From an uncultured Chloroflexia bacterium (GTDB lineage: Bacteria; Chloroflexota; Limnocylindria; Limnocylindrales; CSP1-4), in NCBI GenBank assembly GCA_963766735.1, contig CAVYBU010000003.1, positions 32,001 through 96,000 of the forward strand: 64,000 nt of DNA, read 5' to 3'. Position numbers and translations under genes: made by a program. A model generated the notes under the pieces. It was given only the letters and a program-made list of their open reading frames with translations. It had not been told where the DNA came from and did not search any database. The stretch's first letter is position 1. Each line of letters begins with the position of its first letter. Positions 22,357 through 46,566 of the stretch are shown here, piece by piece.

Positions 22357-22368
22357 GCGGCGATCACG

Positions 22369-25963: not shown

Positions 25964-25973
25964 GAGGACACCC

Positions 25974-27437
25974 GTGATCTTCTCCGACGCCGTCACGCTG
26001 GCGCCGTTCATCGCCGCGGTGCTGCTGGCAGCCGCGATCATCGTCGTCGACTTCATCGTGCCCGGCCGCAAGGTCCCGGTGCTCGCGGTGACGTTTGTCG
26101 GCCTTGCGCTCGTCGCCGGGCTGATCGTCCTCACGGGCCAGACCGGATCCACGGCCTTCAACGGCTCCTACGTGGTGGACCCGCTGACCACGTTCCTGGA
26201 CGTGCTGTTCGTGGCGATCGTCGCGCTGAGCGTCGCGTTCGCGCCGGACTACATGGAGGAGCGCGGCCTGCCGGTGGCCGAGTTCAGCGCGATCCTCGTG
26301 TTCGCGATGTCGGGCGCCATGCTCCTTGCCGGGTCGGCGGACCTGCTGCTGCTGTTCCTGGGCCTGGAGCTCATGGTCCTGCCCGGGTACATCCTGGCCG
26401 GCTACCACAAGTCGGACGGCTTCTCGACCGAGGGCGCGATCAAGTACTTCCTGCTCGGGTCCTTCTCCTCCGCCATCTTCCTGTTCGGGCTCGCGTTCGT
26501 GTGGGGCATGACCGGCACCACCCGGATCGATGGCGTGGCGCAATCCCTGGCCGCGCTCGTGAGCGGCACCGCGGCGCTCTCGCCGGGCCTGGCCCTTGGC
26601 CTCGCGTTCATGACCACGGGCGTGGCATTCAAGATCGCCGCCGTCCCGTTCCACTACTGGACGCCGGATGCGTACCAGGGCTCCCCGACCCCGGTCACCG
26701 GCTATCTGTCGGTCGGGCCGAAGATCGGGGCGTTCGCACTGATCATCCGGCTCTTCGGCGAAGCGCTCGGTCCCCTCGCGCTGGACTGGAACATCGTGAT
26801 CATGGTGCTGGCGGCCCTGACGATGACCCTTGGCAACCTGGTCGCGCTGACCCAGGACAACGTCAAGCGGATGCTCGCGTACTCCTCGATCGCACACACC
26901 GGCTACATGCTGGTCGGGTTCGCGGCGTTCGCGGCCGGTGAGATCCAGGGCCTCGAGGGGCTGCTCTTCTACAGCGCCGCGTACGCGTTCATGAACCTGG
27001 GCGCATTCGCCGTGATCGCGGCCCTCCAGAAGCGCCGTGCGGTGACCAGCAACCTGTCCACCTTCGCGGGCCTCATCCGCCGTGAGCCGGTCCTGGCGTT
27101 GATGATGACCCTGTTCATGCTGTCCCTCACGGGCATCCCGCCCACGGCCGGGTTCTTCGGCAAGTTCTACGTGATCCTCTCGGCGGTCCAGGCCGGTGGG
27201 TGGCTGACCGCCCTCGCGATCCTTGCGGTGCTCAACGCGGCGGTGGCGGCGTTCTACTACCTGCGCGTCGTGGTCTACATGTTCATGCGGGAACCGGAGG
27301 GCGAGATCCCGGTGATGCCGCACGGGCGCCTCGTCTGGGCCGGACTGGTGGTGGCAACGGTGTTGACGGTGGCGCTGGGCCTGTTCCCCAACGCCCTGCT
27401 GGACATCGTCGAGGGCGCGGCCGCGGCGATCGGCTAG
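25974..27437 (+). CDS. nuoN: NADH-quinone oxidoreductase subunit N
   Basis: EGAIKYFLLG, FKIAAVPFHYWTPDAYQGSPTP, KRMLAYSSIAHTGY; AGGAGG SD. Confidence 0.95.
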   Translation: MIFSDAVTLAPFIAAVLLAAAIIVVDFIVPGRKVPVLAVTFVGLALVAGLIVLTGQTGSTAFNGSYVVDPLTTFLDVLFVAIVALSVAFAPDYMEERGLPVAEFSAILVFAMSGAMLLAGSADLLLLFLGLELMVLPGYILAGYHKSDGFSTEGAIKYFLLGSFSSAIFLFGLAFVWGMTGTTRIDGVAQSLAALVSGTAALSPGLALGLAFMTTGVAFKIAAVPFHYWTPDAYQGSPTPVTGYLSVGPKIGAFALIIRLFGEALGPLALDWNIVIMVLAALTMTLGNLVALTQDNVKRMLAYSSIAHTGYMLVGFAAFAAGEIQGLEGLLFYSAAYAFMNLGAFAVIAALQKRRAVTSNLSTFAGLIRREPVLALMMTLFMLSLTGIPPTAGFFGKFYVILSAVQAGGWLTALAILAVLNAAVAAFYYLRVVVYMFMREPEGEIPVMPHGRLVWAGLVVATVLTVALGLFPNALLDIVEGAAAAIG

Positions 27438-27486
27438 GTCCGGGCCCGGAACACATGGGGACTGGGGCCAGCCTCCCCGCGACACC

Positions 27487-28113
27487 ATGATCGACGCGCT
27501 TGCCACGGGCGCCCTGTTCGGGCTGTCGGCCGGCCTCGCCCCGGGTCCGCTGCTCGCGCTTGTCATCTCACAGACCGTGCGCCACGGCCTTGGCCAGGGA
27601 GTGCGGGTGGCGCTCGCCCCGCTGGTCACGGACCTGCCGATCGTCATTGTCTCCGCGCTCCTCGTGGGAACCGTGGCCGGCGCGTCCGGGCCGCTGACGG
27701 TCATCGCCCTGGCAGGTGCCGCCTTCGTCTCGTGGCTGGCCTGGGACACCTGGCGGGCACAGCCGCCGGGCATGCTCCTCGAGGGCGAGACGCCACCGGC
27801 GCCGCGATCGTGGACCCGTGGGGTCGTGGCCAACGGGCTCAGCCCGCATCCCTGGCTGTTCTGGATCGTCGTTGGCGCACCGACGCTGCTCTCCGCGTAC
27901 TCCAGCGGCGGGGTGCCGACAGCAGCCGCGTTCCTGCTCGGGTTCTACGGATGCCTCCTCGGGTCGAAGCTGGGCATCGCGCTGGCGGTCGGGCGGACGC
28001 GAGGTCGTGTCGCCGGGCGCGGCTACCGGTTGACCATGCGCGTGCTGGCGGTGCTGCTGGTCGCGTTCGCCGTCGGGCTGCTGCGCGAGGGACTGCTCCT
28101 GGTGACCGGCTGA
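27487..28113 (+). CDS. LysE-family translocator
   Basis: GLSAGLAPGP..SQTVRHG, NGLSPHPWLFW; about 6 TM. Confidence 0.82.
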   Translation: MIDALATGALFGLSAGLAPGPLLALVISQTVRHGLGQGVRVALAPLVTDLPIVIVSALLVGTVAGASGPLTVIALAGAAFVSWLAWDTWRAQPPGMLLEGETPPAPRSWTRGVVANGLSPHPWLFWIVVGAPTLLSAYSSGGVPTAAAFLLGFYGCLLGSKLGIALAVGRTRGRVAGRGYRLTMRVLAVLLVAFAVGLLREGLLLVTG

Positions 28114-28128
28114 CGGCCACGCGCGGCG

Positions 28129-28794
28129 TCAGGGAGTGACGGTCACCCCTGGCAGGATCGACCCGAGGCCGGCGGCCATCACATCCGGACCGATCCCACC
28201 CAGCGCACCGTCGCGCACGATCCCATCCTTGTCGATCCAGAAGTGGACTGGAAGGGCAAGGGCACCCCACGCGGCCTGCGCGGTGCCGTCCGTGTCCAGC
28301 CCGACCGGGAAGGTCATGCCCACCTCGGCGGCAAACGCGGCAACCGCGGCCTCGTCCTCGCGCACGTCCACGGGGACGACGACGATGTCCGTGTCCTCGT
28401 AGCGTGCTGCGAAACCGGCCATGAGCGGCAGTTCGTCCACGCAAGACGGGCACCACGTGGCCATGAAGTTGACCCAGACCGGCTTGCCCCTGAGCGCGGC
28501 GAGGTCGATCGTGCCGCCTCCGACCTTCGGGACCACCAGCGGCGGCGCCGGCTGTCCGACGCCAAACGCCTCGGAGCCGGCGGTGGCCGACGGCTCTGCG
28601 GGAGTTGGAGTGGCCGGCGATGCCGTGGGAGTGGGGGCGGGTGACGGGAACGGCGTTGGCTCCGCGGTCGGTGTCGGCGCGGGTGAGGCCGCGGGTGCGG
28701 GCCCCGGCAGGAACGCGACCAGCCCACCAATGATGAGGCCTCCCACGACGACGCCCGTGACAAGCCCCAGTGCGATGACAGTCCTCCCACCCAT
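28129..28794 (-). CDS. Membrane-anchored TlpA/ResA-like thiol-disulfide oxidoreductase
   Basis: N-terminal TM, Pro/Thr/Ser linker, GKPVWVNFMATWCPSC..ELP, cis-Pro loop LPVHFWIDKDG. Confidence 0.9.
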   Translation of the reverse strand: MGGRTVIALGLVTGVVVGGLIIGGLVAFLPGPAPAASPAPTPTAEPTPFPSPAPTPTASPATPTPAEPSATAGSEAFGVGQPAPPLVVPKVGGGTIDLAALRGKPVWVNFMATWCPSCVDELPLMAGFAARYEDTDIVVVPVDVREDEAAVAAFAAEVGMTFPVGLDTDGTAQAAWGALALPVHFWIDKDGIVRDGALGGIGPDVMAAGLGSILPGVTVTP

Positions 28795-28861
28795 CTGGCG
28801 AGCGTACCAGCACTAACGGGGAGAGGCACGTTCCTCCGGAGTCAACTAGGATTCGCGCGCC

Positions 28862-29596
28862 ATGGTCGCCACCCTGCTCACCGCACTCCGCACGCGGCTC
28901 CTGCCTGCGCTCGTGACCGCGATGGGCGTCATGCTGGTCACGGCCGGCCTGCTCTCGTACGCGGACCCCGCCACAGCCGGCACCGCGGTCGTGGAGACGC
29001 CGAGCATCGAGACCCTCGCGCCGACCGAGGAGCCCACGCCGACGATCGAGGTGGCGTCTCCATCGGTGAACCCGTCCACAACGGCATCGGCTGAGCCGAC
29101 GGCAGAGGCAACGCCGCCACCCGCCGGGCGGGCTGTTGCCACCCGCGTGGTTGTCCCGGCGCTCAAGATCGACATGCCGATCGTCGAGGGCAACGCCAGC
29201 TACCCATACTGCAACGTCGCGATGTACATCAAGGAGCTGGGCCAGCCCGGCGAGGACCGCGCCACGTACCTCTACGCCCATGCGCGCGACGGCATGTTCG
29301 GCCCGATCTACGAGCTCGCGATCCCGAAGAAGAACGGCAAGAAGATGCTGGGGATGGTCGTGCAGGTCTACACCAGCGACGACAAGCTCTACCTGTACGA
29401 GATCCGCGAGGTGCGGCTCCACCAGCTGGACCTGGACGACGCGCTGGGGGCCACCTCAGAGGAGCTCTGGCTCCAGACCTCGGAGGGACCCAAGGGCACG
29501 CCGGGCAAGACCCAGGTCCGCGCCCTCCCGATCTCGGTCGGCCAGGCGGACCCGGCGGACGCGCATCCCAAGGCGAAGCCCGTCGCCTGCGGGTAG
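28862..29596 (+). CDS. Sortase-fold protein with LQTS in place of catalytic LxTC
   Basis: N-terminal TM, S/T/P stalk, RVVVPALKIDMPIVEG, PGE..TYLYAHA..GMFGP, YLYEIREV, LWLQTS. Confidence 0.72.
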   Translation: MVATLLTALRTRLLPALVTAMGVMLVTAGLLSYADPATAGTAVVETPSIETLAPTEEPTPTIEVASPSVNPSTTASAEPTAEATPPPAGRAVATRVVVPALKIDMPIVEGNASYPYCNVAMYIKELGQPGEDRATYLYAHARDGMFGPIYELAIPKKNGKKMLGMVVQVYTSDDKLYLYEIREVRLHQLDLDDALGATSEELWLQTSEGPKGTPGKTQVRALPISVGQADPADAHPKAKPVACG

Positions 29597-32689: not shown

Positions 32690-33895
32690 TTGGACCAGCA
32701 GGAGACCACGAACGGGGCTGCCCCGGTGGCGCGTGATCGGAAGATCCGCGTCGCCATCGTCGGCGTTGGCAACTGCGCCAGCAGCCTCGTCCAGGGCCGC
32801 TACTACTACGAGAACGCCAAGCCCGAAGACTTCGTTCCGGGGCTGATGCACGTCAAGCTGGGCGACTACCACATCAGCGACGTGGAGTTCGTGGCCGCGT
32901 TCGACGTGGACAAGGAGAAGGTCGGCAAGGACATCTCCGAGGCGATCTTCTCGGGCCAGAACAACACCTTCAAGTTCATGGACGTCCCGCACATGGGCGT
33001 GACCGTGGACCGGGGAATGACCCACGACGGCCTGGGCAAGTACCTGTCCCAGGTGATCGAGAAGGCACCCGGACCCACGGCCGACGTCGTCGGGATCCTC
33101 AAGGAGCGCAAGGTCGACATGGTCGTCTCCTACCTCCCCGTCGGGAGCGAGGAGGCGACGAAGTGGTACGTGGAGCAGGCGCTGCAGGCCGGCGTCGGTT
33201 TCATCAACGCCATCCCGGTGTTCATCGGCCGTGAGCCCTACTGGCAGCGCAGGTTCGCCGAGAAGGGCCTGCCGGTCATCGGGGACGACATCAAGAGCCA
33301 GGTCGGCGCGACCATCTCGCACCGCGTGCTCACCCGCCTGTTCATGGACCGCGGTGTCCGCGTGGACCGCACCTACCAGCTGAACTTCGGCGGCAACACG
33401 GACTTCATGAACATGCTCGAGCGCGAGCGCCTGGAGTCGAAGAAGATCTCCAAGACCAACGCCGTCACGTCCATGCTCGACTACGAGCTGGAGGCGGGGA
33501 ACGTCCACGTCGGGCCGTCGGATTACGTGCCGTGGCTCCAGGACCGCAAGTACTGCTACATCGTGATGGAGGGGACGACCTTCGGTGACGTGCCGCTCAA
33601 GGCGGAGCTCAAATTGGAGGTCTGGGACAGCCCCAACAGCGCAGGTGTCATCATTGACGCCATCCGGTGTCTCCGGATCGGCCTCGACCGGGGCCTGAAG
33701 GGGACCCTGGTGGCACCGTCCAGCTACTTCATGAAGAGCCCGCCGCTCCAGGTCCACGACGACATCGCGTACAACCGCGTGGAGGCGTTCATCAGGGGCG
33801 ACGACAACGAGACGCTCGTGGGCAACGAGGAGTCGAAGAAGGACTCCAAGGCGCTCGCGACGGCAGCCCGCACGAAGGTGACCGCCACCAAGTGA
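32690..33895 (+). CDS. ino1: myo-inositol-1-phosphate synthase
   Basis: [58 protein letters not shown]; TTG start after AAGGAAAGGG. Confidence 0.95.
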
Positions 33896-34902
33896 CGCAA
33901 CCCCAGCGACGGCTCGAGGCGCCCCACCGGCGCCTCGAATCCTCCCCGCGCCTGCTCGAGAAGGCGGCGGTCGTCGGCTACAAAGCCACGGCGGCCGCCC
34001 TTGCGCACCTGCCACCCCGGCTCTCGAGGGAGGTCATCGGCGGGTTCTCCCAGCTTGGCTACCTCGTCCTGCCGTCGAAGCGACGCTGGTCGAACCAGAA
34101 CTTCGGGCACGTGCTCGGCCTGCCACCCGAGCACCCGCGGGTGCGGCGCATGGCCCTCCGCGCGTACAGGGAGTACGCGACCTACATGGTGGAGCTGATG
34201 CGTCTGCCGTCCCGCCCGAAGGGCGAGGTCTCGATGCTGGTTGACGGCGGCGGCATCGACCGCATCATCGATGGCTGGCGGGCGTCCGGCCGGGCGGCGA
34301 TCGTGGTCGCCGGCCACGTCGGCAACAACGAAGCGGTGGCGGCTGCCGTGGCCTGGCGGGGGCTCCCCGCGAACGTCGTCGCGGACGACTCCTCGTTTCC
34401 CGAGATCTTCGAGATCCTCCGCCAGCAACGCGAGTCGTGGGGTGTCCACGTCGTACCGTGGCGCAACCTGCGCGAGATCTTCAAGGTCCTGCGCAACAAC
34501 GAGATCATGGCGCTCCTCGTGGACTGGGGCTACCGCAGCGACGGCATCCCGGTGAAGCTGTTCGGCGCCTGGACAACGCTTCCGGCAGGTCCGGCAACGC
34601 TCGCCGCCAAGACCGGCGCCGTGATCGCCCCGATGGCGGTCCGTCGCACGGTGGACGGCCGCTTCCGGGTGGATGGCGACGAGGTGTTCGCAGTTCCGTC
34701 TTCGAGCCCGGCCGATCTCCAGCGGGCCACCCAGCGGATCGCGGACGCGCTCCAGCGGACGATTGCCGCCGCGCCGGAGCAGTGGTACAGCTTCAAGCCG
34801 ATGTGGCCGTCGGACCCGGCGGAGGGGGTGGGGCTGGAGGCGCGCGCGGCCGCGATGCTCGCCGGCGATGCGGCCGAGACCAAAGGGGACGGGCGGCCGT
34901 GA
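33892..34902 (+). CDS. PatA/LpxL-family lipid acyltransferase 1
   Basis: [30 protein letters not shown]; GTGA overlap. Confidence 0.85.
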
Positions 34903-35999
34903 CCGCTGCGCCGGCGATGCGCGACGTTGACGGCGTCACTGCCGATCCCGGGGCGACTGCGGGCACCGGCGGGTCGCCGGGCGCCGGCGGGACACCGCAG
35001 CGGGCTCCGCGGGCAGGCCTCCGCGGATCGCTGCTGCTGGCCGCGGCCCGCGTTCTCACCTGGCTGCCCGAGGCGCCGCTGGTCGCTGCGGCCGAAGCCA
35101 TCGGCGAGGTCTGGTACCGCGCCACCCCGCGTCGGGCCGCCCAGGCGCGCGCGAACCTGCGTCGGGCCTGCGAGGGGCTGGCGGCCCAGGGCCGCGGCAC
35201 GAGCCTCGCCCGTCGCGCGGCCACCGACCCGGATGCGCTGGAGCGGATCGTCCGCCGTTCGTATCGCCACGCCGTCCGCTACTACCTGGAGGTCGCCCGG
35301 ACCGGCGGGCTGACGGTCGAATCCGCTGCCGCGCGCATCGACGTCGACACCCCGGACGAGGTCCGGGACGCGCTGATGACGGGCCAGCCCGTGGTCATCG
35401 TGGGCATGCACTTCGGGGCCATCGAGCTGCCGACGGTCATCATCTCCAGCCTCGTTGGCCACAGGGTCACGGCGCCCATGGAGACGGTCGCGGACCCTGG
35501 CCTCCAGCGCTGGTTCGTCGAGTCCCGCAGCCGGGTCGGCGTCAACATCGTGCCGATCCGCGACGCCCGCCGCGCCCTCATGCGCGCGCTGCGCCGCCAC
35601 GAGTCCGTGGGGATGGTGGCCGACAGGGACATGCTGGGCAACGGTCTCCTGGTCCCCTTCTTCGGTCACCCGACCCCCATCTCGGCCGGCCCGGCGCTCC
35701 TGGCCATCGAGGCGGGGGTGCCGGTGTACGCGGGCTCCGCGCGCCGGGCGAGGGGCGGGCGGTATCGCGGGCGACTGATGCTGGTGCCCACCCCGGCGGA
35801 GGGATCGCGACGGGAGCGGATCGCGGCGCTGACAGCCTCGATCGCCGTGGCGTTCGAGTCCATCCTCGCCGACGGACCCGAGCAGTGGTGGGGGGCCTTT
35901 CACCCGATCTGGCCTGATCTCGTGCTGCATGACGCGGAGGCGGCAGATACGCCGACGTCCGTCGGGGGTCCGCCCGCATCCCGGGAGGGATCCGCGTGA
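34899..35999 (+). CDS. PatA/LpxL-family lipid acyltransferase 2
   Basis: MHFGAIE, VADRD..VPFFG..AGPALLA, PEQW..HPIWPDL. Confidence 0.85.
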   Translation: MTAAPAMRDVDGVTADPGATAGTGGSPGAGGTPQRAPRAGLRGSLLLAAARVLTWLPEAPLVAAAEAIGEVWYRATPRRAAQARANLRRACEGLAAQGRGTSLARRAATDPDALERIVRRSYRHAVRYYLEVARTGGLTVESAAARIDVDTPDEVRDALMTGQPVVIVGMHFGAIELPTVIISSLVGHRVTAPMETVADPGLQRWFVESRSRVGVNIVPIRDARRALMRALRRHESVGMVADRDMLGNGLLVPFFGHPTPISAGPALLAIEAGVPVYAGSARRARGGRYRGRLMLVPTPAEGSRRERIAALTASIAVAFESILADGPEQWWGAFHPIWPDLVLHDAEAADTPTSVGGPPASREGSA

Positions 36000-36817
36000 C
36001 CGCCGAACCGCTCGACCGGCTGGGCCGCGCCGACCTGCACATCCATACCTGGGCATCGGATGGGACTGCCTCGGTGGTCGAGGTCCTTGACCACGTGGAG
36101 CGCGAGGGCGTCCTTGACGTCATCGCCATCACCGATCATGAGCGGATCGACGCGGCCCTCGCGGGCCGGCAGATGGCGGCGGACCGGGGTCTCGGGTTCT
36201 CCGTGGTCGTGGGCGAGGAGATCTCCACGCGCGGCGGCCACCTCCTCGGGCTGTTCCTGGAGCGGCCGGTGCCCGCGCTCAAGAGCCTGCGCTGGTCGAT
36301 CGAGGCCGTTCATGACCAGGGTGGCCTCGCGATCCCGGCCCATCCGCTGGCCCCGCACCCGATGTCCGCCCAGGGCTTCGTGCTCAGACGGTTGCTTGCC
36401 TCGGATGACCCGGTCGTCCATCCGGACGCGATCGAGACGTTCAACCCCACGGCCTTTGGGCGGTACCGCCACGGCAACGTCGTCCGCACCGCGGCCGAGC
36501 TCGGCCTCCCTGAGTTCGGGGCCAGCGACGCCCACGCCCTGGCGGCCGTGGGAAGCGCCTGGACCACGTACCCGGGCCGCACTCCCGACGACATCCGCGC
36601 TGCGCTCCTCGCCCGGACCACGCGCCACCACGGGACCTTCCACGGCAGCGTGGGGCAGCTGGGCGTCTACGGCAACCAGCTGCGCAAGTACGGGCGGGGC
36701 TGGCGGGACGAGATCCTCGGCCGGGTGCGGCGGGACGGAACCGGCCGCGACCACGGCTACCCGGGCGGTCAGCTCCGGCCGCCGCGGTTCCCGGGGCCCG
36801 GGGAGTCGACGCGGTGA
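35996..36817 (+). CDS. PHP-family metal-dependent phosphoesterase
   Basis: DLHIHT..SDG, ITDHE, GEEIST..GHL, AHP, GASDAH (complete PHP metal ligand set). Confidence 0.9.
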   Translation: MTAEPLDRLGRADLHIHTWASDGTASVVEVLDHVEREGVLDVIAITDHERIDAALAGRQMAADRGLGFSVVVGEEISTRGGHLLGLFLERPVPALKSLRWSIEAVHDQGGLAIPAHPLAPHPMSAQGFVLRRLLASDDPVVHPDAIETFNPTAFGRYRHGNVVRTAAELGLPEFGASDAHALAAVGSAWTTYPGRTPDDIRAALLARTTRHHGTFHGSVGQLGVYGNQLRKYGRGWRDEILGRVRRDGTGRDHGYPGGQLRPPRFPGPGESTR

Positions 36818-38031
36818 AGATCGGCCTCGTCAGCCCGTACGTGTACCCGCTCCCGGGCGGCGTCACGCAGCACGTCCGGTACCTGTACGAGAACCTGCGC
36901 ATCCGCGGCCACGACGTCCGGATCCTGACTTCGTCCCACGGCCTGCAGCGCAGCTCCGAGGGTGACGTCATCCGGCTGGGCAAGGGCTTCTCGATGCCCG
37001 CCAACGGTTCGGTGGGAACGGTCACCGTCTCGCCCCGCTACATCTCGCAGGTCCGCGGGGTGCTCGAGCGCGAGAGGTTCGACGTCCTCCACTTCCACGA
37101 GCCGTTCGTGCCCTTCCTCTCGCTCGTCATCCTCCGCGAGTCGCAGAGCGTGAACGTGGCCACGTTCCACGCGTTCGGCGGCTGGTCGCCCGCCTACGAG
37201 TTCGGCAGCAGGGCGCTGCGTGGGTACGCGGATCGCCTCCACGGCCGGATCGCGGTCTCCGCGGCTGCCCGCCACTTCATCGACCGCTACTTTCCGGGCT
37301 ACTACAAGGTCATCCCCAACGGAGTCGACGTGGAGCGGTTCCAGCGGTCCGTGCCGCTGGCGCGCTGGCAGGACGGCACGCGGAACATCCTCTTCGTCGG
37401 GCGGTTCGAGCCCCGGAAGGGGCTGCTGGACCTGCTCAAGGCGTACCGGATCCTCCGCAAGATCGACAGCGGTTGCCGCCTGCTCGTGGTTGGCGGCGGG
37501 CCCCAGGAGCGCGAGGCGCGCCGCTACGTGGCCACCCGCCGCCTGGTCGGGGTGGAGTTCCTCGGGCGCGTCTCCGATGACGAGAAGGCCCAACTCTTCC
37601 GGACCACGGATGTCTACGTCTCGCCGGCGACGGGCGGGGAATCCTTCGGGATCGTCCTGCTGGAGGCGATGGCCTCCGGGGCCCCCATCGTGGCCTCGGA
37701 CATCCACGGCTACAAGGGCGTGGTTCGACGCGGACGCGAGGGCCTGCTGGTCCCGCCGCGGGAGCCCAAGCAGCTCGCGGCTGCGATGGCGCGCCTGTTG
37801 CGGGACCACGAGCTGGCCGCCCAGATGTCCGCCGCAGGTCCCCTGCGGGCGGAGGACTTCAGCTGGCCGCGGGTGACGGCCAAGGTGGACGACTACTACG
37901 GGTTCGTGATCCGACGGCTCGCGGCCACGGGCTCGCTTCCGCCTCACTTCACCGCCGACATCCCGCCGTCGCCGAGACAGGCGGCGACAGGCGGCGACGG
38001 GCCCGCCTCCTCCTCACCCAACGACGGGTAG
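36814..38031 (+). CDS. GT4 glycosyltransferase, PimA-like phosphatidylinositol mannosyltransferase
   Basis: MKIGLVSPY..PGGV..HV, PANGSV, LHFHEP, EPRKG, GGESFGIVLLEAMA closely follow PimA motifs. Confidence 0.85.
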   Translation: MKIGLVSPYVYPLPGGVTQHVRYLYENLRIRGHDVRILTSSHGLQRSSEGDVIRLGKGFSMPANGSVGTVTVSPRYISQVRGVLERERFDVLHFHEPFVPFLSLVILRESQSVNVATFHAFGGWSPAYEFGSRALRGYADRLHGRIAVSAAARHFIDRYFPGYYKVIPNGVDVERFQRSVPLARWQDGTRNILFVGRFEPRKGLLDLLKAYRILRKIDSGCRLLVVGGGPQEREARRYVATRRLVGVEFLGRVSDDEKAQLFRTTDVYVSPATGGESFGIVLLEAMASGAPIVASDIHGYKGVVRRGREGLLVPPREPKQLAAAMARLLRDHELAAQMSAAGPLRAEDFSWPRVTAKVDDYYGFVIRRLAATGSLPPHFTADIPPSPRQAATGGDGPASSSPNDG

Positions 38032-38038
38032 CGGTCGA

Positions 38039-41000
38039 TCAGGCGGTTCCTGATCCCCCAGCAGGGCTGCCGGCGTCCCCTGACGCATCGCCGTCCTGCA
38101 GACCGTTGGCCGGCCCGTCCTCCGGCCCGTCCGCGAGCGACTGGCGCCAGACCCAGGCGGAGTAGGCGACCACGCAGCAGGCGATGGTGAGGAAGACGAC
38201 CAGCAGCGCGAGCTTCGGGTCCGCGAAGGAGATCGCCCCGGCGCGGTCCACGGTGTTCACGGAGAACTGGAACGCGTAGATGTACGTCGGCAGCAGGCCC
38301 TGGTAGGCGTTGACCATCGCGGCCGGGAGGGGCAGCGCCGAGATGTTCGGGTAGAGGATCACGAACCAGACCGCCGCCGCCGCCAGGAGTCCTGCAACGA
38401 ACCGCCGACCGTCCCGGGCGGTGACCACCTGGAGGGCGACCAACCCCAGCGGGATCGCGACGACCAGGGCGATGACCTCCGGGATGAGCCCCGGGATTGA
38501 GAGCAGTGGATCGGTCGCTGGCAGGAGCCAGGCGAGAACGAGCGCCGCGACGCCAACGGCCGCCGCAACGCCGAGGGACACGAAGTTCCGTGGCTCCGTT
38601 GTCCGCCCATCGGCGGCTGGCCGGCCGAGGACGAGGAGGAGGCGGACCAGCACGATCACGATGACGAGAATCCCGGTCACCAGCGCGGCCGCCGACGGGG
38701 TCACCACAAGATTGCCGGGATTGCCGTTGCAGGCCTGGGAACCCGCGTTGACGGACTCGACGCCCGCCAGGGCACACAGCGGCAGCCGCAGCACCCACAG
38801 GATCACGGGCCCCATGAGGGCCACGGCGGCGGCCACCCTCGCCAGCTGCCAGGTGCGCCGCGACGCCCCGTGCCAGACCTCGGCGACGAAATAGGCGAGC
38901 GCCGCGACTGCGAACGGCAGGCTCGTGTAGTAGTGGTACTGGAATGCGGCACGGTCGATACGCGCCCAGGAGACCCACTGGGCCAGGAACGCGATCAGGA
39001 TCAGCGCCAGCGCGAGGCTCCGGCGCCTGAACGCCTGGTAGGCCACGAAGACCATCGCCGGGATGCTCATCCACCAGATCACCATGTTGCCGGCGTCGTA
39101 GATGGCGCCCGCGGTATCCCCGGCGAAGCTGCCCTGATAGAACCAGACCGGCTTGAGGTTGAGCGGCCATGCCCACCACGGAGAGCTGGCTGCATGGGCC
39201 GCCGTGAGGTTGTTGTGGTAGCGATACATCTCGCCGGTGAGCGCGACGAGCGTCTGGCCGTCGTTGCCGGCCGGCCACCCGGCCACGATCTGGTGGCCCT
39301 CGATGAATGCCCATGGCAGATACGACGCGACGTAGACGCCCAGCGGGATCGCCAGCAGACAGACCACCATCCAGACGACCGGCAGGCCGAGGCCCGCGCC
39401 CAGGCGTGGCCAGCCCTCCGCCGGCGGGGAAGCCTTGGGGACCCGGCTTCGGACGTCACCGCGGTCGGATGTCGGCGCCGTCGGCCCGAAGCCGAACCGG
39501 GCGGCCAGCTGGAACGCCCCGTAGGCGACCAGGCCCACGGCGACCAGCGCGAACCCAACCGCGAGCGGCGTGACCACGAACGGCCCCGCGACGATCTCCG
39601 CATCGGCCATGCCCAGCGCGATGGCGGTGAATGCGACGAGGATCCCCAGAACGGGCGGGCCGCCGATCGCCAGGCGCACCTCGTCGTCTGACCACGAGAT
39701 CGGGTGGTAGACCGTCACCACCACCGTACTCAGCGTGAGCCCGATCATGACCAGCGCGAACACGAGGTTGCCGGAGGCCGTGCTGCCTTCGGGGACCGCG
39801 AGGCCCATCCAGCCCAGCACGCACGTCAGGGCGATCATGGCCACGATGAGCAGCAGGCGGCCCAGCGCGGAGCGGATCAGCACCAGGATCCCGAGCGCCC
39901 CGATCGCATACGCCGCCACCCACTTGGACGACAGTGCGAGCCCCAGCAGCACCCCGACCACGGGCATCAGGAGCACAAACGCCCGCCACGAACGCTGCCG
40001 GATCCAGAGCCAGGCGAAGACGAGGTACGCCGCGAGGATGAAGAAGCCGGTGAAGACGTCGTTCATCGCGATCCGGCTCTGCACGAAGAACATCCCGTCC
40101 AGGAGCACGAACAGCCCGACCAGGACCCCGACCGTGCGGCGCCGGAACAGGATCCGGCCCAGCAGGAACAGCACGCCGACGGTGAGGGCCCCGAAGATCA
40201 CGCCCGGCAGACGCCAGGCGAACGGGTAGCTGCCCACGTCGACCGAGGCGGCCTCGCCCCCGGAGCCGAACGCGAGGATCGCACCCCGGCTGGTGGCGGG
40301 GTAGTCCCCGTTGTGGTCGAGGACCCACGCCGCGGATGAGAACGCGAGCCGGTGATCGGCAAAGACCGCCTTGCCGTGCGGCTCCACCACGTAGATGGTC
40401 TGCCCCGAACCGTCCGGGGCCGTGCCCAAAACTTCCACGAGCTCGGCGGCCGCATCGAAGACGAGCCGCGTCCCGGCGCCCGGCAGCTGGAAGGTGGTCG
40501 TGACAGTCGGCCCGTCCTTCGCCTGGTCGCCGGAGACCGCGACGACGGCCACCTGCGGGTCGCCGGTCCCGACGTCGGTGGTGGTGACGTAGAGCTGGTT
40601 GCCCTCGTCCACGCCTGTCACCAGCACCGACGACGTGGCGCCGCCTTCCAGGGGGATCGACCCGGCACGGGTCCCGCCTACAGTCACGAGCTCCACGCCG
40701 GCAGAGGCCGCTGCGGCAATGAGCGGCGTGCCGGCGACCTGGACGCCGGGGACCCGGCCGTCGTCGATCGCCGCCTGCAGGTCCGTCCGAAGCTGGTCCG
40801 TGAGCGTGATGTCCAGGACGACCGTCTCGGCGTCGACCTCCGAGAGGGCGCCGACGAAGCGAGCGGCGTCGGTGCCGGTGATCGTGGCCAGCTCGTCAGC
40901 CACGGCGGCCGGGTCCGTGACGTCGATCGGCGTGGCCACGACGGCGTCACCGTCGCCCATCGGGGCCATGTCGGCCACCCCGGCCACGACGAGCGAGCCG

Positions 41001-43396
41001 GTCACCGCTCCCGTCCCGCCGTCGAAGACGGTCACGGTGTCACCGGGCAGCATCGCCGCGAGGTGCTGGCCGTCGCCGAAGGACGCCAGCCGGCGGATCG
41101 GGCCGTCCGCCGTGGCCACGGGATCAACGGTCGCCGGCGGCTGCGATGCTTCATAGGAACCCGGGGCATCAAGGGCCGTCGCGTCCACCGCGAACAGCTC
41201 GCCGCCATCCGTGCCGGTGTAGACCTGGAGGCCGGTTTCGTCAAAGGCGACGGCGGATGCGCCGGGCACGGACCAGCGGGCGACGAGCTTGCGCGTGGCC
41301 AGGTCGAAGGCCACGAGCTCGGATCCGGTGGCGATCCAGACCCGGTCTCCGGCCCGGTCCGCCTCGCCAAAAGGGTCCTCGCGACGAGGCTCGATGACCG
41401 CATCCCGCACGGGGACCCCGAGGTTGCTGGCGGAGCTGGCGTCGTGGCCGGCGAAGGTGACGATACCGCCGGCCATCGCGTACTTCGCGAGGTGGGGGTG
41501 GGTCCACTCGTAGATGTTGTGCGAGATCCCGTATCGCCAGGCCTGGAGGAACTCCGTGGACGTGCGGGCGTGGTAGACCTCGTCGAAGTGCATGCGCGCA
41601 GGCTCGTCCAGCCGGAAGGTCCGCAGCCCGAGGGAGGCGACCACGAGCACCACCAGGATCCAGATGTCCAGGCGACCAAGGCGACCGCCGCCCTCGCGGG
41701 CCAGATCCCCGGAACGGTCGGGGCGAATGGGCGTCTCGCGCATCCGGGCACGGATCCAGCCGATCGGGCCCAGCTCACCCCAGCCTGGACGGTCGTACCA
41801 GGCAGGCACGCGGCGCACGACAGGCGAGGACGCATCGGCTGTCGGGGGAGGTGCCCCCGAGACCGCGAGCGATGCCGGCGCGGCGGCTGCGACGGCGGCG
41901 GGTGCCGGCGGCTGCGACCCCGGGGGCTCCGTGCCAGGTGCCTGCGCCTCGAGCTCGTCCGGGGTCGGTCGCGCTCGCTCGAGCCGCCCGTCCGCAAGCT
42001 CCAGGGCGAGGGTGCCGCGCGCCCGTGAACGCAGCTGCATGACGCCCCACGCGAAGGCGGCTGCGTGCATCACCGCCACCAGCGCCACCCCTGGGAACGA
42101 GCGGATCGCCGGTCCGATGCCCAGCCAGTCCGACACGCTCGGGTTGTCCGGGTAGATCGTGGTGAGGACCACGTACATGTTGAGGAACGTCGCCAGCCCG
42201 GCCACCACGTACGCGATCCGCCATCGCCACGAGAACGCGAACAGGATCGCGGCGAGCCCGAAGAACGGGAACAGGTATCGCTCATGGACCCGCGTGGGCA
42301 CCGCGAAGAACGCCAGGGCGAGGACGCAGACGCCCACCAGGATGGTCAGCCGGTCCGGACGCCTCGCCACCACGAGCGATACGATCGCCGCCAGGCCCAG
42401 CAGGAGGACCGCACCAACCATGGCCGCCGGGACTGGCCCGAGCGCCGCCCAGGCAGTCGCATCCGGCACCGGCGCGTCATGGATCCAGAGGCCACTCGTG
42501 GCCAGGCTCGCGCCGTCCAGCGGGAACAGCGCCCACAGGTTGTAGGCGTTGACCGACACATACGAGTACTGGGCCGCGGTGCTGAACACCAGGCGCAGCA
42601 GGGACGACTCGAGGTAGGGGGCCGTCGCCGTGAAGGACACGACCGAGAGACCGAACGGTGCCGCCACCGCGATGGCGGTCACCAGGCCGGCGAACCCGGT
42701 GGTCAGGATCCGGACGGGGCCCAGGGTGCGCCGCTCCCAGGCGAGACCTCCTGGGCGTGGCGGGTCCTCGTCGCCCCAGCCTCCGGCCGGCCATAGCGCC
42801 CGGCGGATCGTGACCACAGCCACGATCGGGACCAGAATCGCCAGCTGCGGCTTGATGAGGGCCGCGACAACGGCCAGGATCGCCGATCGCTCGCTCCTGC
42901 CGCGCCACAGCTCCCGGACGGCGAGCAGCAGGAACACCGTGCCGAAGCTGTCCACCTGCCCCCAGACAACCGAATCGAACCATGTGATCGGGTTGAAGAT
43001 GACCACGGCGCCGGCGATGGTCGCCCGTCGCTCGGTCACGCCCAGCTCGCGGACCATCGAGTACACGATGTAGCCGAGCGCGATGTCCGCGAGGATCGCC
43101 GGGAGCTTGATCAGGTCCCCGATCCCGCCGATCAGGTGGCCCACGACGCCGACGACCCACAGCGCGTACAGGTAGCCCGGGGTGTAGTCCGCGAACGAGG
43201 CATTCTCGTAGAAGCCGGGGGGGCCGTATGTCGCGAGCGTGTCGGCCCAGTACCTGAACAGGTCCAGATCGTTCCCGAACCCGGAGCCCCGGAGCGGTTC
43301 GTAGGCGTATGCCATGATGAGGCGGAAGACCAGCCCGATCAGCATGATCGTGGCGATCTGCCTGCCGATACCTCGCCGGGGGGTCTCGTCCGTCAT
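38039..43396 (-). CDS. Giant (~1,785 aa) double GT-C protein: N-terminal GT-C module plus PMT-like module with a large extracytoplasmic insertion
   Basis: Module 1: DYTPGY, WGQVDS, IKPQ, HERYLFP. Module 2: FDEVYH, HPHLAK, FAWR, QSRIAM, SKW, H..SSPWWAWP, GN..IWW, F.YHY. Confidence 0.85.
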   Translation of the reverse strand: MTDETPRRGIGRQIATIMLIGLVFRLIMAYAYEPLRGSGFGNDLDLFRYWADTLATYGPPGFYENASFADYTPGYLYALWVVGVVGHLIGGIGDLIKLPAILADIALGYIVYSMVRELGVTERRATIAGAVVIFNPITWFDSVVWGQVDSFGTVFLLLAVRELWRGRSERSAILAVVAALIKPQLAILVPIVAVVTIRRALWPAGGWGDEDPPRPGGLAWERRTLGPVRILTTGFAGLVTAIAVAAPFGLSVVSFTATAPYLESSLLRLVFSTAAQYSYVSVNAYNLWALFPLDGASLATSGLWIHDAPVPDATAWAALGPVPAAMVGAVLLLGLAAIVSLVVARRPDRLTILVGVCVLALAFFAVPTRVHERYLFPFFGLAAILFAFSWRWRIAYVVAGLATFLNMYVVLTTIYPDNPSVSDWLGIGPAIRSFPGVALVAVMHAAAFAWGVMQLRSRARGTLALELADGRLERARPTPDELEAQAPGTEPPGSQPPAPAAVAAAAPASLAVSGAPPPTADASSPVVRRVPAWYDRPGWGELGPIGWIRARMRETPIRPDRSGDLAREGGGRLGRLDIWILVVLVVASLGLRTFRLDEPARMHFDEVYHARTSTEFLQAWRYGISHNIYEWTHPHLAKYAMAGGIVTFAGHDASSASNLGVPVRDAVIEPRREDPFGEADRAGDRVWIATGSELVAFDLATRKLVARWSVPGASAVAFDETGLQVYTGTDGGELFAVDATALDAPGSYEASQPPATVDPVATADGPIRRLASFGDGQHLAAMLPGDTVTVFDGGTGAVTGSLVVAGVADMAPMGDGDAVVATPIDVTDPAAVADELATITGTDAARFVGALSEVDAETVVLDITLTDQLRTDLQAAIDDGRVPGVQVAGTPLIAAAASAGVELVTVGGTRAGSIPLEGGATSSVLVTGVDEGNQLYVTTTDVGTGDPQVAVVAVSGDQAKDGPTVTTTFQLPGAGTRLVFDAAAELVEVLGTAPDGSGQTIYVVEPHGKAVFADHRLAFSSAAWVLDHNGDYPATSRGAILAFGSGGEAASVDVGSYPFAWRLPGVIFGALTVGVLFLLGRILFRRRTVGVLVGLFVLLDGMFFVQSRIAMNDVFTGFFILAAYLVFAWLWIRQRSWRAFVLLMPVVGVLLGLALSSKWVAAYAIGALGILVLIRSALGRLLLIVAMIALTCVLGWMGLAVPEGSTASGNLVFALVMIGLTLSTVVVTVYHPISWSDDEVRLAIGGPPVLGILVAFTAIALGMADAEIVAGPFVVTPLAVGFALVAVGLVAYGAFQLAARFGFGPTAPTSDRGDVRSRVPKASPPAEGWPRLGAGLGLPVVWMVVCLLAIPLGVYVASYLPWAFIEGHQIVAGWPAGNDGQTLVALTGEMYRYHNNLTAAHAASSPWWAWPLNLKPVWFYQGSFAGDTAGAIYDAGNMVIWWMSIPAMVFVAYQAFRRRSLALALILIAFLAQWVSWARIDRAAFQYHYYTSLPFAVAALAYFVAEVWHGASRRTWQLARVAAAVALMGPVILWVLRLPLCALAGVESVNAGSQACNGNPGNLVVTPSAAALVTGILVIVIVLVRLLLVLGRPAADGRTTEPRNFVSLGVAAAVGVAALVLAWLLPATDPLLSIPGLIPEVIALVVAIPLGLVALQVVTARDGRRFVAGLLAAAAVWFVILYPNISALPLPAAMVNAYQGLLPTYIYAFQFSVNTVDRAGAISFADPKLALLVVFLTIACCVVAYSAWVWRQSLADGPEDGPANGLQDGDASGDAGSPAGGSGTA

Positions 43397-43487
43397 CGTC
43401 TCCCGGCCGGGCATACCCGAACCAGAGCGGTCACGGGGAGCCTCCTACGCAGCGTTGAAGGTGGACCGGAGTATAGCCGAGGGCCCG

Positions 43488-44954
43488 GTGTCGGCCCCCC
43501 TCCCCGCCCCCGCGAACAGCCGCGCCGCGACGATCATCGTCGGGGCGCTGCTCGCGTCGGTCGCACTCCTCGTCTACTGGTGGTCCAACCCCGTCCACTC
43601 GAACCAGTACACCCACTTCGTATGGCAGGCGGACGCGTTCCTCAACGGCCGTGCGTGGTTCCCCTACCCGGTCCCGTCCGGCGCGGCGTTGCCCCAGAAC
43701 GACTACTTCCAGGACGTCTACCCGCTGCGTGACGCGGCGGGTAACCCGGACGGCCGGGCTCTGCTCCCGTTCCCGCCCCTGCCCGCGGTCGTCCTGGCGC
43801 CGTTCGTGTTCATGTTCGGGCTGGCGACGGATCAGGAGACGCTCGCGATCGGCCTCGCCGCCCTGGGCGTGGCGCTCGCGTGGTGGATGCTCGGCAGCCT
43901 GGGCCTGCGGTCCTCCGTCCGCGCCGCCGGGACGATCATCTTCGCCACCGGCACGGCCTGGTGGTGGGCAGCCGCCGCGGGCAGCACGTGGTACCTGGCG
44001 CACCTTGTCGCAGTCGACCTGGCGCTGGTTGCCGTGGGCATCGCACTCCGGAACGATCCCGGGGCCGTCACGGAGCACCCCTGGGACGAGGACGAACGGG
44101 AGGCGGGGCGCCTGGAGGCGGAGGGCCGCGCCGGGACGATCATCGACCGCATCCGCGGGTCCCTCTGGCCGCTGGATCGCTCACAGGTCCTGGCCGGCTT
44201 CGTGCTGGGCCTCGCCGTGACTGCACGCCTGCCGCTGATCTTCGCGGCGCCCTTCTTCGTGTTCACGGGCGGTGGCGGCTCCCGGCTCCGGCGCACGGTG
44301 TCGGCGGCCGTCGGCGGGTTCCCTCCGGTGGCCGCGCTGCTGCTGTTCACGTTCCTCACGACCGGCTCACCGATGCACCCCGGCTACGAGTACCAATACC
44401 AGCTGGAGGCGAACGGCTACACCACGTTCGGCTACCACCCGGACTGGTCTGTGGAGGACACGCGCTACATCCCCCAGAACCTCGGGATCATGTTCGGCTC
44501 GCTGCCGGCCGTCGCACCGGTGATCAAGCCGGACACCCTTGGCTACGACAGCCCCGTGCGGCTGTGCACGGAGCCTGGGGCCGTCCGGTCCCTGTTCGAT
44601 GCCGACTGTCCGCTGCTGATCCCGGTGGATATCGGGACGAGCATCCTGCTCAGCGCCCCTGGCCTCCTGCTGGCGCTGTTCGCGTTCCGCCGACATGCCC
44701 GTGCGCGCCTCTCGATCGGCACCGCGCTTGCGGTCGTGCTCATCGCCACGTTCAACCTGGCCCACTTCAGCCAGGGCTGGGTGCAGTGGGGCTACCGCTT
44801 CTCGCTGGACTTCGTCCCGTTCCTCCTGCCGATGGTGGCGCTGGGCGCGGCCCGCGACGACGGGCGCCTCCGGGTCGTGGCGGCCGTGCTCATCGCGGCC
44901 GGGGCGGCGATCAACCTGTGGGGCGTCGCCTGGGGCCAGATCCTTGGGTGGTAG
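43488..44954 (+). CDS. Multi-pass membrane protein, probable GT-C glycosyltransferase
   Basis: QADAFLNGR, PFPPLPA, WYLAH, WGYRFSLD; many TM segments; start position uncertain. Confidence 0.7.
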   Translation: MSAPLPAPANSRAATIIVGALLASVALLVYWWSNPVHSNQYTHFVWQADAFLNGRAWFPYPVPSGAALPQNDYFQDVYPLRDAAGNPDGRALLPFPPLPAVVLAPFVFMFGLATDQETLAIGLAALGVALAWWMLGSLGLRSSVRAAGTIIFATGTAWWWAAAAGSTWYLAHLVAVDLALVAVGIALRNDPGAVTEHPWDEDEREAGRLEAEGRAGTIIDRIRGSLWPLDRSQVLAGFVLGLAVTARLPLIFAAPFFVFTGGGGSRLRRTVSAAVGGFPPVAALLLFTFLTTGSPMHPGYEYQYQLEANGYTTFGYHPDWSVEDTRYIPQNLGIMFGSLPAVAPVIKPDTLGYDSPVRLCTEPGAVRSLFDADCPLLIPVDIGTSILLSAPGLLLALFAFRRHARARLSIGTALAVVLIATFNLAHFSQGWVQWGYRFSLDFVPFLLPMVALGAARDDGRLRVVAAVLIAAGAAINLWGVAWGQILGW

Positions 44955-44961
44955 TGGCCGC

Positions 44962-46566
44962 GTGGCGTCGGCCGTGATCCGGCGTCGGCCCGACGCGGCC
45001 GTCCTCGCCGCCCTGGTCACGGGCATGACGGCGATCGCCGTCTACCGGACCACCCTCCTGCCTGGGCTCGGTGCCTGGGACACCGGTGAGGCCCAGGTGG
45101 TGCTGCCCGTGATGGGCACCCTGCACCCGACCGGTTCCCCCGCCTACGTCCTTCTGGGCTGGTTCGCCTCGGTCGTCCTCGGGCCGCTCGGGTCGCCGGC
45201 ATTCGTCATCAACCTCCTCTCGGCGATCCTCGCCGGCGTCGCGGTCGGCATGAGCGTCCTGGTGATGCGCCGCCTCGCCGTGCCGCTCCCGATCGCGGTC
45301 GCGGTCGCGGTCGGTTTCGCGCTCACGCCCATCGTCTGGAGGATCGGCTCCGCTGCCGATGCCCACGCCCTGCACCTGGCGTTGGTCGTCGCCGTCACGC
45401 TGTCGCTTCTCCGGTGGGGCGCCCTCGTGGCAGAGCGCCGCAGCCGTCCCGACGACCCGGCCGCGCGGGCCCGCGCGGATCGCGCCATCGTGCTCACGGC
45501 CGTCGTCTTTGGCGTCGCTGTTGCCAACCACGCCCTGTCGCTGCTGCTGGTGCCCGCCGTGGGCCTGTACGTGCTGGCGGTGGAGCCGGGGATCCTGCAC
45601 AGGCCGCGGCTGGTGCTGGCCGCATTGGGTTCCTTCGCCGGCACGACCGCCCTGCTGTACCTGGAGATGCCGCTCCGCGGCGGACCGTTCCGCGCCCCGC
45701 TCGTCTACGGTCATCCCGAGACGTGGGACGGCTTCTGGGGGATCGTCCTGGCCCGCCAGTTCCTGGGCGACGTGGTCGAGCCGCGGCCGGACCTCGGGGG
45801 AGAGGTGGCCCGCCTTGTCGGGCAGGCGGGCCCGCTGCTTGGCCCGCTGCTCATCCTGGTCGCTGCAGGGCTCGTGGTGACCGCCGTCCGCCAGCCGCGT
45901 TACGCCCTCTTCTCCGTGACGGCCACCCTGGTCACGTGCGTGTTCGCGGCCTTCTACGCCAACGCCGCCATCGAGCGCTACTACCTGGGGCCGGCGTTCT
46001 TCGCCTGGACGTGGGTGGCGGTGCTGGCCGCGGCGGTGGCGGCCCGGCTGGCCGCGCTGCGCGGGCCGGACGGGGAGCCGGGGGAGGATGACGTAGCCGG
46101 GCCCCTGTTCAGGCATGCCCCGAGAGTCTCCGCGTCAGCGGCCGTTGCGACGATGATCGGTCTTGTGCTGCTGGTGCCCACGCTCCTCGACCTCGATGCC
46201 CGGTGGGGCGCCGCGGACCGCTCGCGGGAGGTCTGGGCGGCCGACTGGCTCGACCAGGTGTTCGACTCGGTGGCGCCCGGTGCCGTGATCGTGTCATGGT
46301 GGTCGTACTCCACGCCCCTGTGGTATGGCCAGCTCGTGGAGGGCCGGCGGCGCGACATCCTCGTCGTGGACGATCGGACGCGCGAGGACGAGGAGATGGG
46401 CGAGGTGGAAGACGTCATCGACAGGTTCCTGGGAGCGCGACCCGTGTACGTCATCCGCGCGCAAGGATCGAGCGTCAAGCTTCTCGCAGAGCAATACGCG
46501 ATCGAGGCCGTCGATCGTCCGGACAACCTCTTCCGTGTGACGAACCGCCTGGAGGCCCAGCCGTGA
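44962..46566 (+). CDS. DUF2723/TMEM260-like GT-C glycosyltransferase
   Basis: WDTGE.Q..GTLHPTG.P.Y.LLG signature, NLLSA, ANH, ERYY. Confidence 0.8.
   Translation: MASAVIRRRPDAAVLAALVTGMTAIAVYRTTLLPGLGAWDTGEAQVVLPVMGTLHPTGSPAYVLLGWFASVVLGPLGSPAFVINLLSAILAGVAVGMSVLVMRRLAVPLPIAVAVAVGFALTPIVWRIGSAADAHALHLALVVAVTLSLLRWGALVAERRSRPDDPAARARADRAIVLTAVVFGVAVANHALSLLLVPAVGLYVLAVEPGILHRPRLVLAALGSFAGTTALLYLEMPLRGGPFRAPLVYGHPETWDGFWGIVLARQFLGDVVEPRPDLGGEVARLVGQAGPLLGPLLILVAAGLVVTAVRQPRYALFSVTATLVTCVFAAFYANAAIERYYLGPAFFAWTWVAVLAAAVAARLAALRGPDGEPGEDDVAGPLFRHAPRVSASAAVATMIGLVLLVPTLLDLDARWGAADRSREVWAADWLDQVFDSVAPGAVIVSWWSYSTPLWYGQLVEGRRRDILVVDDRTREDEEMGEVEDVIDRFLGARPVYVIRAQGSSVKLLAEQYAIEAVDRPDNLFRVTNRLEAQP

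Follow-up and report, generated by a model that had tools for sequence, protein, structure and literature searches.

Bacterial inositol lipids are made by a route in which, according to the available text of three studies, bacterial-type synthases convert CDP-diacylglycerol and inositol phosphate into phosphatidylinositol phosphate (PIP), on which a phosphatase must then act to give phosphatidylinositol (PI) (PMC9246714, PMC4634129, PMC6506517). For this last step, BT_1525 of Bacteroides thetaiotaomicron, a member of the PgpA family, has genetic support, since the mutant accumulates PIP (PMC9246714, in the part consulted), and it is the only supported bacterial PIP phosphatase found in the literature searched. 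Outside Bacteroides the PIP-dephosphorylating enzyme was not identified, as far as the accessible portions of two sources tell (PMC9246714, 2022; bioRxiv 10.64898/2026.07.15.738315); the mycobacterial one is described as ‘long-sought’, with EphE proposed and biochemical evidence lacking (bioRxiv 10.64898/2026.07.15.738315, July 2026, in the portion available). This agrees with an earlier note on the DNA analysed here, according to which the enzyme is not firmly identified in mycobacteria. The present analysis concerns a stretch of 64,000 nucleotides (nt), called the window (positions 32,001 to 96,000 of contig CAVYBU010000003.1, assembly GCA_963766735.1), from the metagenome-assembled genome of a soil bacterium of Limnocylindrales (Chloroflexota); the assembly is 93.85% complete, with 4.22% contamination. 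The window carries a gene for a PHP-family metallophosphoesterase, referred to below as PHP, which lies among genes for PI synthesis and is examined as a candidate for the PIP to PI phosphatase.

In mycobacteria and corynebacteria, the locus for PI and phosphatidylinositol mannosides (PIMs) has the gene order pgsA1-patA-pimA. The window operon has PIP-synthase-like, PatA-like and PimA-like genes in common with it, and differs in that Ino1 is included, the acyltransferases are two and a PHP gene is present. A control genome, that of Corynebacterium glutamicum, gave no PHP_C match, so we see no ground for carrying the idea over to Corynebacteriales or to the mycobacterial enzyme, and even a correct assignment in Chloroflexota would not thereby identify the latter. 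BT_1525 performs the step proposed here for PHP and, in the accessible account, also lies in an inositol-lipid cluster beside a PIP synthase and a myo-inositol phosphate (MIP) synthase; the PgpA family and the PHP barrel are nevertheless unrelated folds, and what speaks for PHP is gene context alone. An analogous chemistry, in which the phosphate that a CDP-alcohol transferase leaves on the head group is taken off, is known from the phosphatases of phosphatidylglycerophosphate (PGP), whose substrate and folds differ from those of PHP. These enzymes, PgpA, PgpB, PgpC and PgpP, are non-orthologous and replace one another across lineages; the available text of the source suggests a fifth class for Actinobacteria and Chlamydiae, and mentions neither Chloroflexota nor PHP (PMC11804483). 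The literature search, with subscription journals and supplements outside its scope, returned no paper assigning a PHP enzyme to the PIP to PI step.

Association of the PHP gene with phosphatidylinositol genes

The operon comprises six genes on the + strand, for a PIP-synthase-like protein (PIPS), Ino1, two PatA-like acyltransferases (AT1 and AT2), PHP and a PimA-like glycosyltransferase of family 4 (GT4), and PHP is the sole gene among them without an assigned step. Its GTG start overlaps the TGA stop of AT2 and its own TGA stop overlaps the GTG of GT4, in both cases as a 4-nt GTGA; the same overlap occurs at the Ino1/AT1 and AT1/AT2 junctions, so that four successive overlaps run from Ino1 through GT4. 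The sequence thus bears out the earlier description of an intact reading frame overlapping an acyltransferase gene and a pimA-like gene by 4 nt. The PHP gene is intact, retains the residues of the metal-site motifs, is translationally coupled and travels with the PIP synthase gene across many families of Chloroflexota.

Within Limnocylindrales, PHP relatives were found in 40 of 41 related genomes, among them all 16 from the sister genus g2, which are streamlined to about 1.1 Mb. The order PIPS-INO1-AT-PHP-GT4 is seen in 66 of 80 loci, the other 14 being cut by contig ends, and GT4 directly follows PHP in all 80. This linkage says little by itself because the genomes are close kin. When 401 genomes were drawn evenly from Chloroflexota, 244 had a PHP match (E ≤ 1e-25) and 352 an Ino1 match (E ≤ 1e-40); some unpublished genomes are counted here (G078 and G184 for PHP; G212, G380, G310 and G266 for Ino1) and serve no other claim. 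Sixty PHP loci from 59 genomes were then picked to cover many families, with the choice limited to the stronger of the matches listed, which makes them a non-random set, and 40 of these, in 24 families, lie among PI genes. Most linked loci combine an acyltransferase and a PimA-like gene with PIPS and Ino1 (19 loci), with PIPS in the absence of Ino1 (8 loci) or with Ino1 (3 loci); five more are reduced, without acyltransferases (INO1-PHP-GT4-PIPS and fragments of it), and the last five have PIPS only. Outside Limnocylindria the usual order is INO1-AT-AT-PHP-GT4-PIPS, and most full clusters beyond the order Limnocylindrales have a second acyltransferase-like match, placed after AT1 and before PHP.

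The PIPS-only loci, all in one family (f24), are the most telling. They have the order ArsR-PHP-PIPS-NYN with neither PimA nor acyltransferase, and their transferase scores 130–155 bits against models of PIP or archaetidylinositol-phosphate (AIP) synthase versus about 30 bits against PgsA. Pairs of this kind tie PHP to the product of the synthase. A maximum-likelihood tree of 68 rows made with IQ-TREE has a branch with support 99/98 that sets all 61 Chloroflexota PHPs (the 60 loci and the window gene) apart from the other PHP paralogues of the source genome, and unlinked f24 rows nest with a linked row at 100/100. Conserved linkage to PI genes, which had been fixed beforehand as the point on which the proposal could fail, holds in 80 of 80 Limnocylindrales loci and in the 24 families just described. 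Gene context, the five f24 loci included, therefore supports the earlier note in its choice of PHP as the candidate PIP phosphatase.

Some further features of the f24 loci can be recorded. Three of them (L204, L206 and L232) have an ArsR-type regulator upstream of PHP-PIPS and a protein of about 800 residues with a C-terminal NYN domain downstream; at a fourth f24 locus (L106) the NYN gene still adjoins PHP and the synthase lies elsewhere. Apparent AT::PHP and PHP::GT4 fusions in Chloroflexota were left uncounted: almost all are single-sequence clusters on single contigs, and they may be assembly errors that merge frames, given the 4-nt overlaps.

Family, residues and fold of the PHP protein

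The protein has Pfam matches to PHP_C (PF13263; 45.9 bits, cut-off 21.3) and PHP (PF02811; 27.1 bits, barely over the cut-off of 26.4) only, and thus lacks the PgpA domain PF04608. In an alignment of 89 sequences, H17 and H48 do not vary, and conservation reaches at least 90% at H15, D22, D47, E75, H82, H116, D178 and H180; these His, Asp and Glu residues are presumably the metal ligands, and the enzyme looks intact. An AlphaFold2 model built from the alignment of the 89 relatives has a mean predicted local distance difference test score of 90.6 and a predicted template modelling score of 0.88, with a long C-terminal helix at residues 218–240. Its top Foldseek matches are TM0559 (2anu), BVU_3505 (3e38), RNase AM (7ug9 and 9etk) and PsfC (7rty), at E values of about 4e-11 to 1e-09, all of them PHP phosphoesterases; 42 PDB matches reach E ≤ 0.001, and among the matches listed all but one are PHP-domain proteins. 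Profile score, metal-site motif residues and barrel fold therefore all place the protein in the PHP superfamily. The two nearest structures, TM0559 of Thermotoga maritima and BVU_3505 (E about 4e-11, template modelling score (TM) 0.58–0.73), say nothing on the substrate because they are structural-genomics entries with no function in their titles.

Assignment to a named family is less direct, since none of the seven NCBIfam families with E ≤ 0.001 reaches its cut-off. The best is the CehA/McbA metallohydrolase model NF038032 (60 bits against 80, residues 11–152), to which the protein is accordingly not assigned. RNase AM/RNM (NF047791; 46.3 bits against 375) and 3′,5′-nucleoside bisphosphate phosphatase (NF041577; 34 against 400) match over residues 12–95 only, and the identities of RNase AM and of pAp phosphatase were rejected on these scores. 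Proteins of these two kinds, RNase AM/TrpH (7ug9, 9etk) and the Cv1693-type bisphosphate phosphatase (2yb1), share with the window PHP the fold and an alignment of the HxH, DH, E, H and H motifs, the N-terminal motifs aligning with RNase AM chains; they differ in that the similarity is confined to the N-terminal third and in their gene context. Histidinol phosphatase was also rejected, as no model of it is among the seven families; the histidinol phosphatase 2yxo comes only at rank 38 in Foldseek (E 9.5e-05, TM 0.42).

Proposed function

The favoured reading, held with slightly more belief than doubt, is that PHP is the phosphatase converting PIP into PI. The PIP synthase would form PIP by combining CDP-diacylglycerol with inositol phosphate that Ino1 provides; PHP, a putative cytoplasmic, metal-dependent phosphomonoesterase, would remove the ring phosphate to give PI; the PimA-like GT4 would mannosylate PI and the two PatA-like acyltransferases would acylate the product, yielding an acylated PIM-like glycolipid. 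As in characterized PHP phosphatases, the phosphomonoester might be attacked by a hydroxide that bridges the metals of the cluster. The identity of the substrate, the sequence of the steps and this mechanism are all inferred. The product of the synthase in this operon should be PIP because Ino1 is encoded in the operon and no inositol monophosphatase (IMPase) is, and enzymes of the PimA type take PI as acceptor. Further points in favour of this reading are that PHP has the superfamily membership and fold of a phosphoesterase, that the genome has no gene of the PgpA family, to which BT_1525 belongs, and that an independent PHP subfamily is likewise tied to Ino1 and PIPS.

A wider proposal is more tentative and, in our judgement, falls just short of being probable: the PHP group may represent a new class of head-group phosphatase, a soluble PHP barrel that would act on PIP, and perhaps also on PGP, at the surface of the membrane, with the fold recruited twice, as a stand-alone protein in Chloroflexota and as a fusion in Gaiellaceae (Actinomycetota). 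PGP is considered as a possible substrate because the genome lacks PgpA and PgpP: the PgpA family (PF04608) has no match in the whole assembly, at the completeness of 93.85% given above, and PgpP has none above cut-off. If PHP does convert PIP into PI, a class of lipid head-group phosphatases would be added, and the presence of PIM-like glycolipids in Chloroflexota would gain support. A candidate of unrelated fold would make the PIP to PI step directly testable by simple reconstitution in E. coli, and this candidate is conserved in operons of many families of a phylum that is large and for the most part uncultured, with a second PHP lineage fused to a PimA-like domain in soil Actinomycetota.

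Contrary evidence and alternative functions

Several observations weigh against PHP as the PIP phosphatase. The assignment of the PIP to PI step draws on gene context only. Twenty of the 60 sampled loci have no adjacent PI gene (families f14, f53, f23 with f5, f45 with the second G169 copy, f33 and part of f24). Four more families, whose matches are weaker (about 1e-28), gave an unlinked best PHP in five of five genomes, so the tally of 244 genomes includes divergent homologues of uncertain orthology; likewise, a few of the 401 genomes carry a PHP match without Ino1, a count in which the threshold of 1e-25 also admits divergent homologues. PI operons may also do without PHP. Among 20 Ino1 loci from families lacking a PHP match (L238–L257), eight have INO1-GT4-PIPS, one INO1-AT-GT4-PIPS and two INO1-PIPS, the others being four with Ino1 and an acyltransferase only, four with Ino1 alone and one with a weak PHP match 5.7 kb off; one further genome (locus L260) has INO1-AT-AT-GT4-PIPS without PHP. 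As such operons are common, many Chloroflexota must perform the step, if it is needed, with another enzyme, and PHP is not universal; the situation resembles the interchange of PgpA, PgpB, PgpC and PgpP. Outside the operon, the source genome itself has genes for alternative enzymes, three of PAP2 and two of the IMPase family, which could take on the dephosphorylation. Finally, the last 60 residues of the protein are cationic (median net charge +5 versus −7 for the core, 63 proteins), a tail that fits membrane contact as a suggestion only, and the amphipathic moment of the C-terminus exceeds that of shuffled sequences in only 11 of the 63 proteins, for which reason an amphipathic C-terminal helix was rejected as firm evidence of membrane binding.

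What else the enzyme might do can be judged from the same loci and profiles. It could belong to the same pathway and act on another phosphoester, that is on mannosyl-PIP (if PimA acts first), on inositol phosphate, or on CDP-diacylglycerol or GDP-mannose as a regulator, which we regard as unlikely. The conserved linkage to PI genes supports this too, PHP enzymes include mono- and diesterases (RNase AM, the nucleotide phosphatase 2yb1 and EndoQ are all among the Foldseek matches), and in full clusters PHP is always directly upstream of the PimA-like gene; in mycobacteria a Nudix hydrolase gene accompanies the pgsA1-patA-pimA operon. The f24 pairs of PHP and PIPS without PimA or acyltransferases, however, disfavour any substrate that needs PimA or GDP-mannose, and a phosphatase acting on inositol phosphate would compete with the synthase in a genome that has its two IMPase-family genes elsewhere. 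It is quite improbable that PHP is a passenger of the operon with a housekeeping role on nucleotides or RNA, as a phosphoesterase like RNase AM/TrpH or pAp phosphatase. Relatives are labelled ‘predicted metal-dependent phosphoesterase TrpH’ by JGI, the best PDB sequence matches are the RNase AM entries 9etk and 7ug9 (E 1e-07, over the N-terminal 80 residues only), and one third of the sampled orthologues are unlinked to PI genes; yet the NCBIfam scores for both enzymes are far under their cut-offs, the genome holds other PHP paralogues, and a passenger would not be expected to show the 4-nt coupling and to be retained in operons in 24 families and in every one of the g2 genomes of about 1.1 Mb.

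The position of PHP beside acyltransferases in most linked loci (classes of 19, 8 and 3 among the 40) and the CehA/McbA model as best NCBIfam match bring to mind a hydrolase of carboxyl or carbamate esters that remodels the acyl chains of an acylated PIM-like lipid, named CehA/McbA members being known to hydrolyse a carbamate ester. We give very little credence to this possibility: the CehA/McbA score is below the cut-off, ten of the 40 linked loci keep PHP without acyltransferases (classes GPI, GP, G, I and P), and the nearest structures are all phosphoesterases. The conserved partnership of PHP and PIP synthase favours PIP as the substrate over a later intermediate, nucleotide sugars or acyl esters.

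A fused PHP subfamily and related modules

A protein of 560 residues (P0325) has the N-terminal domain of a GT4 followed by PHP and PHP_C, and represents a family of PimA-like::PHP fusions of about 575 residues that is tied, like the window PHP, to Ino1 and PIP synthase. The family counts 6917 proteins at E ≤ 1e-20 among 8000 scored, two of which are named Gaiellaceae by NCBI. Eighty fusion loci from metagenomes were kept (mostly full-length, the others cut by contig ends; 62–80% identity over the best aligned segment), with Ino1 directly upstream in 64 and PIPS in 43; when only the 47 loci whose upstream flank spans 2500 nt or more are counted, 43 have Ino1, 39 have PIPS and 4 have neither. 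The fused PHP domain is only 31–36% identical to the window PHP and in the tree lies outside its group, with the other paralogues of the source genome, so that the fusion is to be regarded, on these comparisons, as a separate PHP subfamily linked to the same genes and not as an orthologue of the window PHP. Often only the N-terminal half of its GT4 part is left, the half through which PimA binds its acceptor and the membrane.

Other arrangements of the same genes were seen in passing. Two loci, L258 (genome G332) and L259 (G111), have INO1-AT-GT4-PIPS without PHP in the operon and a PHP of the other subfamily 2.5 kb and 8.4 kb away, respectively, on the opposite strand; these PHPs are 42–43% identical to the Gaiellaceae fusion domain and 30–34% to the window PHP. 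The eight INO1-GT4-PIPS modules from PHP-less families are compact, with neither PHP nor acyltransferase. In three genomes with an unlinked PHP (G270, G272 and G333), a PIP-synthase-like gene occurs at another site and a search at E ≤ 1e-40 finds no PimA-like gene, a pattern compatible with PI being made without mannosylation, of which it proves nothing.

The source genome also contains other PHP paralogues. One of these, about 40% identical, overlaps by 4 nt the gene of a membrane protein of the LPG_synthase_TM family, in the order MurA-like, MreB, PHP, LPG_synthase_TM. This block is present in two near-syntenic copies, C29:12500–23500 (L193) and C19:31000–42000 (L194), and the doubling may be a real duplication or a redundancy due to strains or to contaminants (contamination 4.22%).

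Gene content of the window around the operon

The positions of the operon genes and of neighbouring features are collected in Table 1.

Table 1. Genes of the PI operon and adjoining features of the window (window coordinates)
Feature	Position	Strand	Support or remark
PIP-synthase-like CDP-alcohol phosphatidyltransferase, 227 aa	31935–32618	+	Pfam CDP-OH_P_transf, E 2.9e-15
Ino1, myo-inositol-1-phosphate (inositol-3-phosphate) synthase	32690–33895	+	Pfam Inos-1-P_synth, E 5.7e-37
PatA-like (HtrB/LpxL family) acyltransferase 1 (AT1)	33892–34902	+	Pfam Lip_A_acyltrans, E 7.2e-33
PatA-like acyltransferase 2 (AT2)	34899–35999	+	Pfam Lip_A_acyltrans, E 5.7e-32
PHP/PHP_C metallophosphoesterase, candidate PIP to PI phosphatase	35996–36817	+	273 aa, GTG start, TGA stop
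PimA-like GT4 mannosyltransferase	36814–38031	+	Pfam Glycos_transf_1, Glyco_transf_4
Glycosylation neighbourhood	38039–47348		Contains the 1791-aa open reading frame
TMEM260-like O-mannosyltransferase	44695–46566		
GT2	46203–47348		
Upstream genes	21981–29596		Listed in the text

The PIP-synthase-like protein matches best, among NCBIfam models, the AIP synthase (141.9 bits), then the PIP synthase (123.3 bits), both under their cut-offs, and PgsA at 27 bits; its motif D69xxD72G73xxA76R77...G86xxxD90xxxD94 is kept in 35 sequences. Ino1 scores 541.8 bits against TIGR03450 (cut-off 638), and GGAAAGGGAA precedes its TTG start. The best NCBIfam model for AT1 is the PIM acyltransferase NF005919, and neither AT1 (132.5 bits) nor AT2 (114.7 bits), the more divergent of the two among relatives, reaches the cut-off of 209. 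GT4 aligns over its full length (residues 1–362) with Mycobacterium smegmatis PimA (4n9w/2gej; phmmer E 1.5e-60), and an identity of the mycothiol (MshA) type was rejected, the second-best match, to the MshA-type 3c4q, having an E value of 6.6e-20. These results agree with the PatA-like and pimA-like identities that the earlier note had given to the neighbours of PHP.

The two PatA-like genes stand in tandem (33892–35999), and two acyltransferase-like matches recur in most full clusters across the phylum. We know of no enzyme assigned to the second PIM acylation in mycobacteria, and the second PatA-like copy could be a candidate for a step of this type.

The DNA around the PI locus is rich in G+C (0.66–0.74). 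A large PMT-like open reading frame converges on the 3′ end of the operon, and a glycosylation neighbourhood adjoins it there. The open reading frame of 1791 residues in that region has PMT and PMT_4TMC matches in its C-terminal third only, and its long N-terminus may be an artefact of calling frames in G+C-rich DNA; TMEM260-like and GT2 frames are also present. The upstream genes encode antiporter-like subunits of NADH dehydrogenase (three Proton_antipo_M frames), a LysE exporter, an AhpC/TSA-redoxin protein and a sortase-domain protein, and appear unrelated to PHP.

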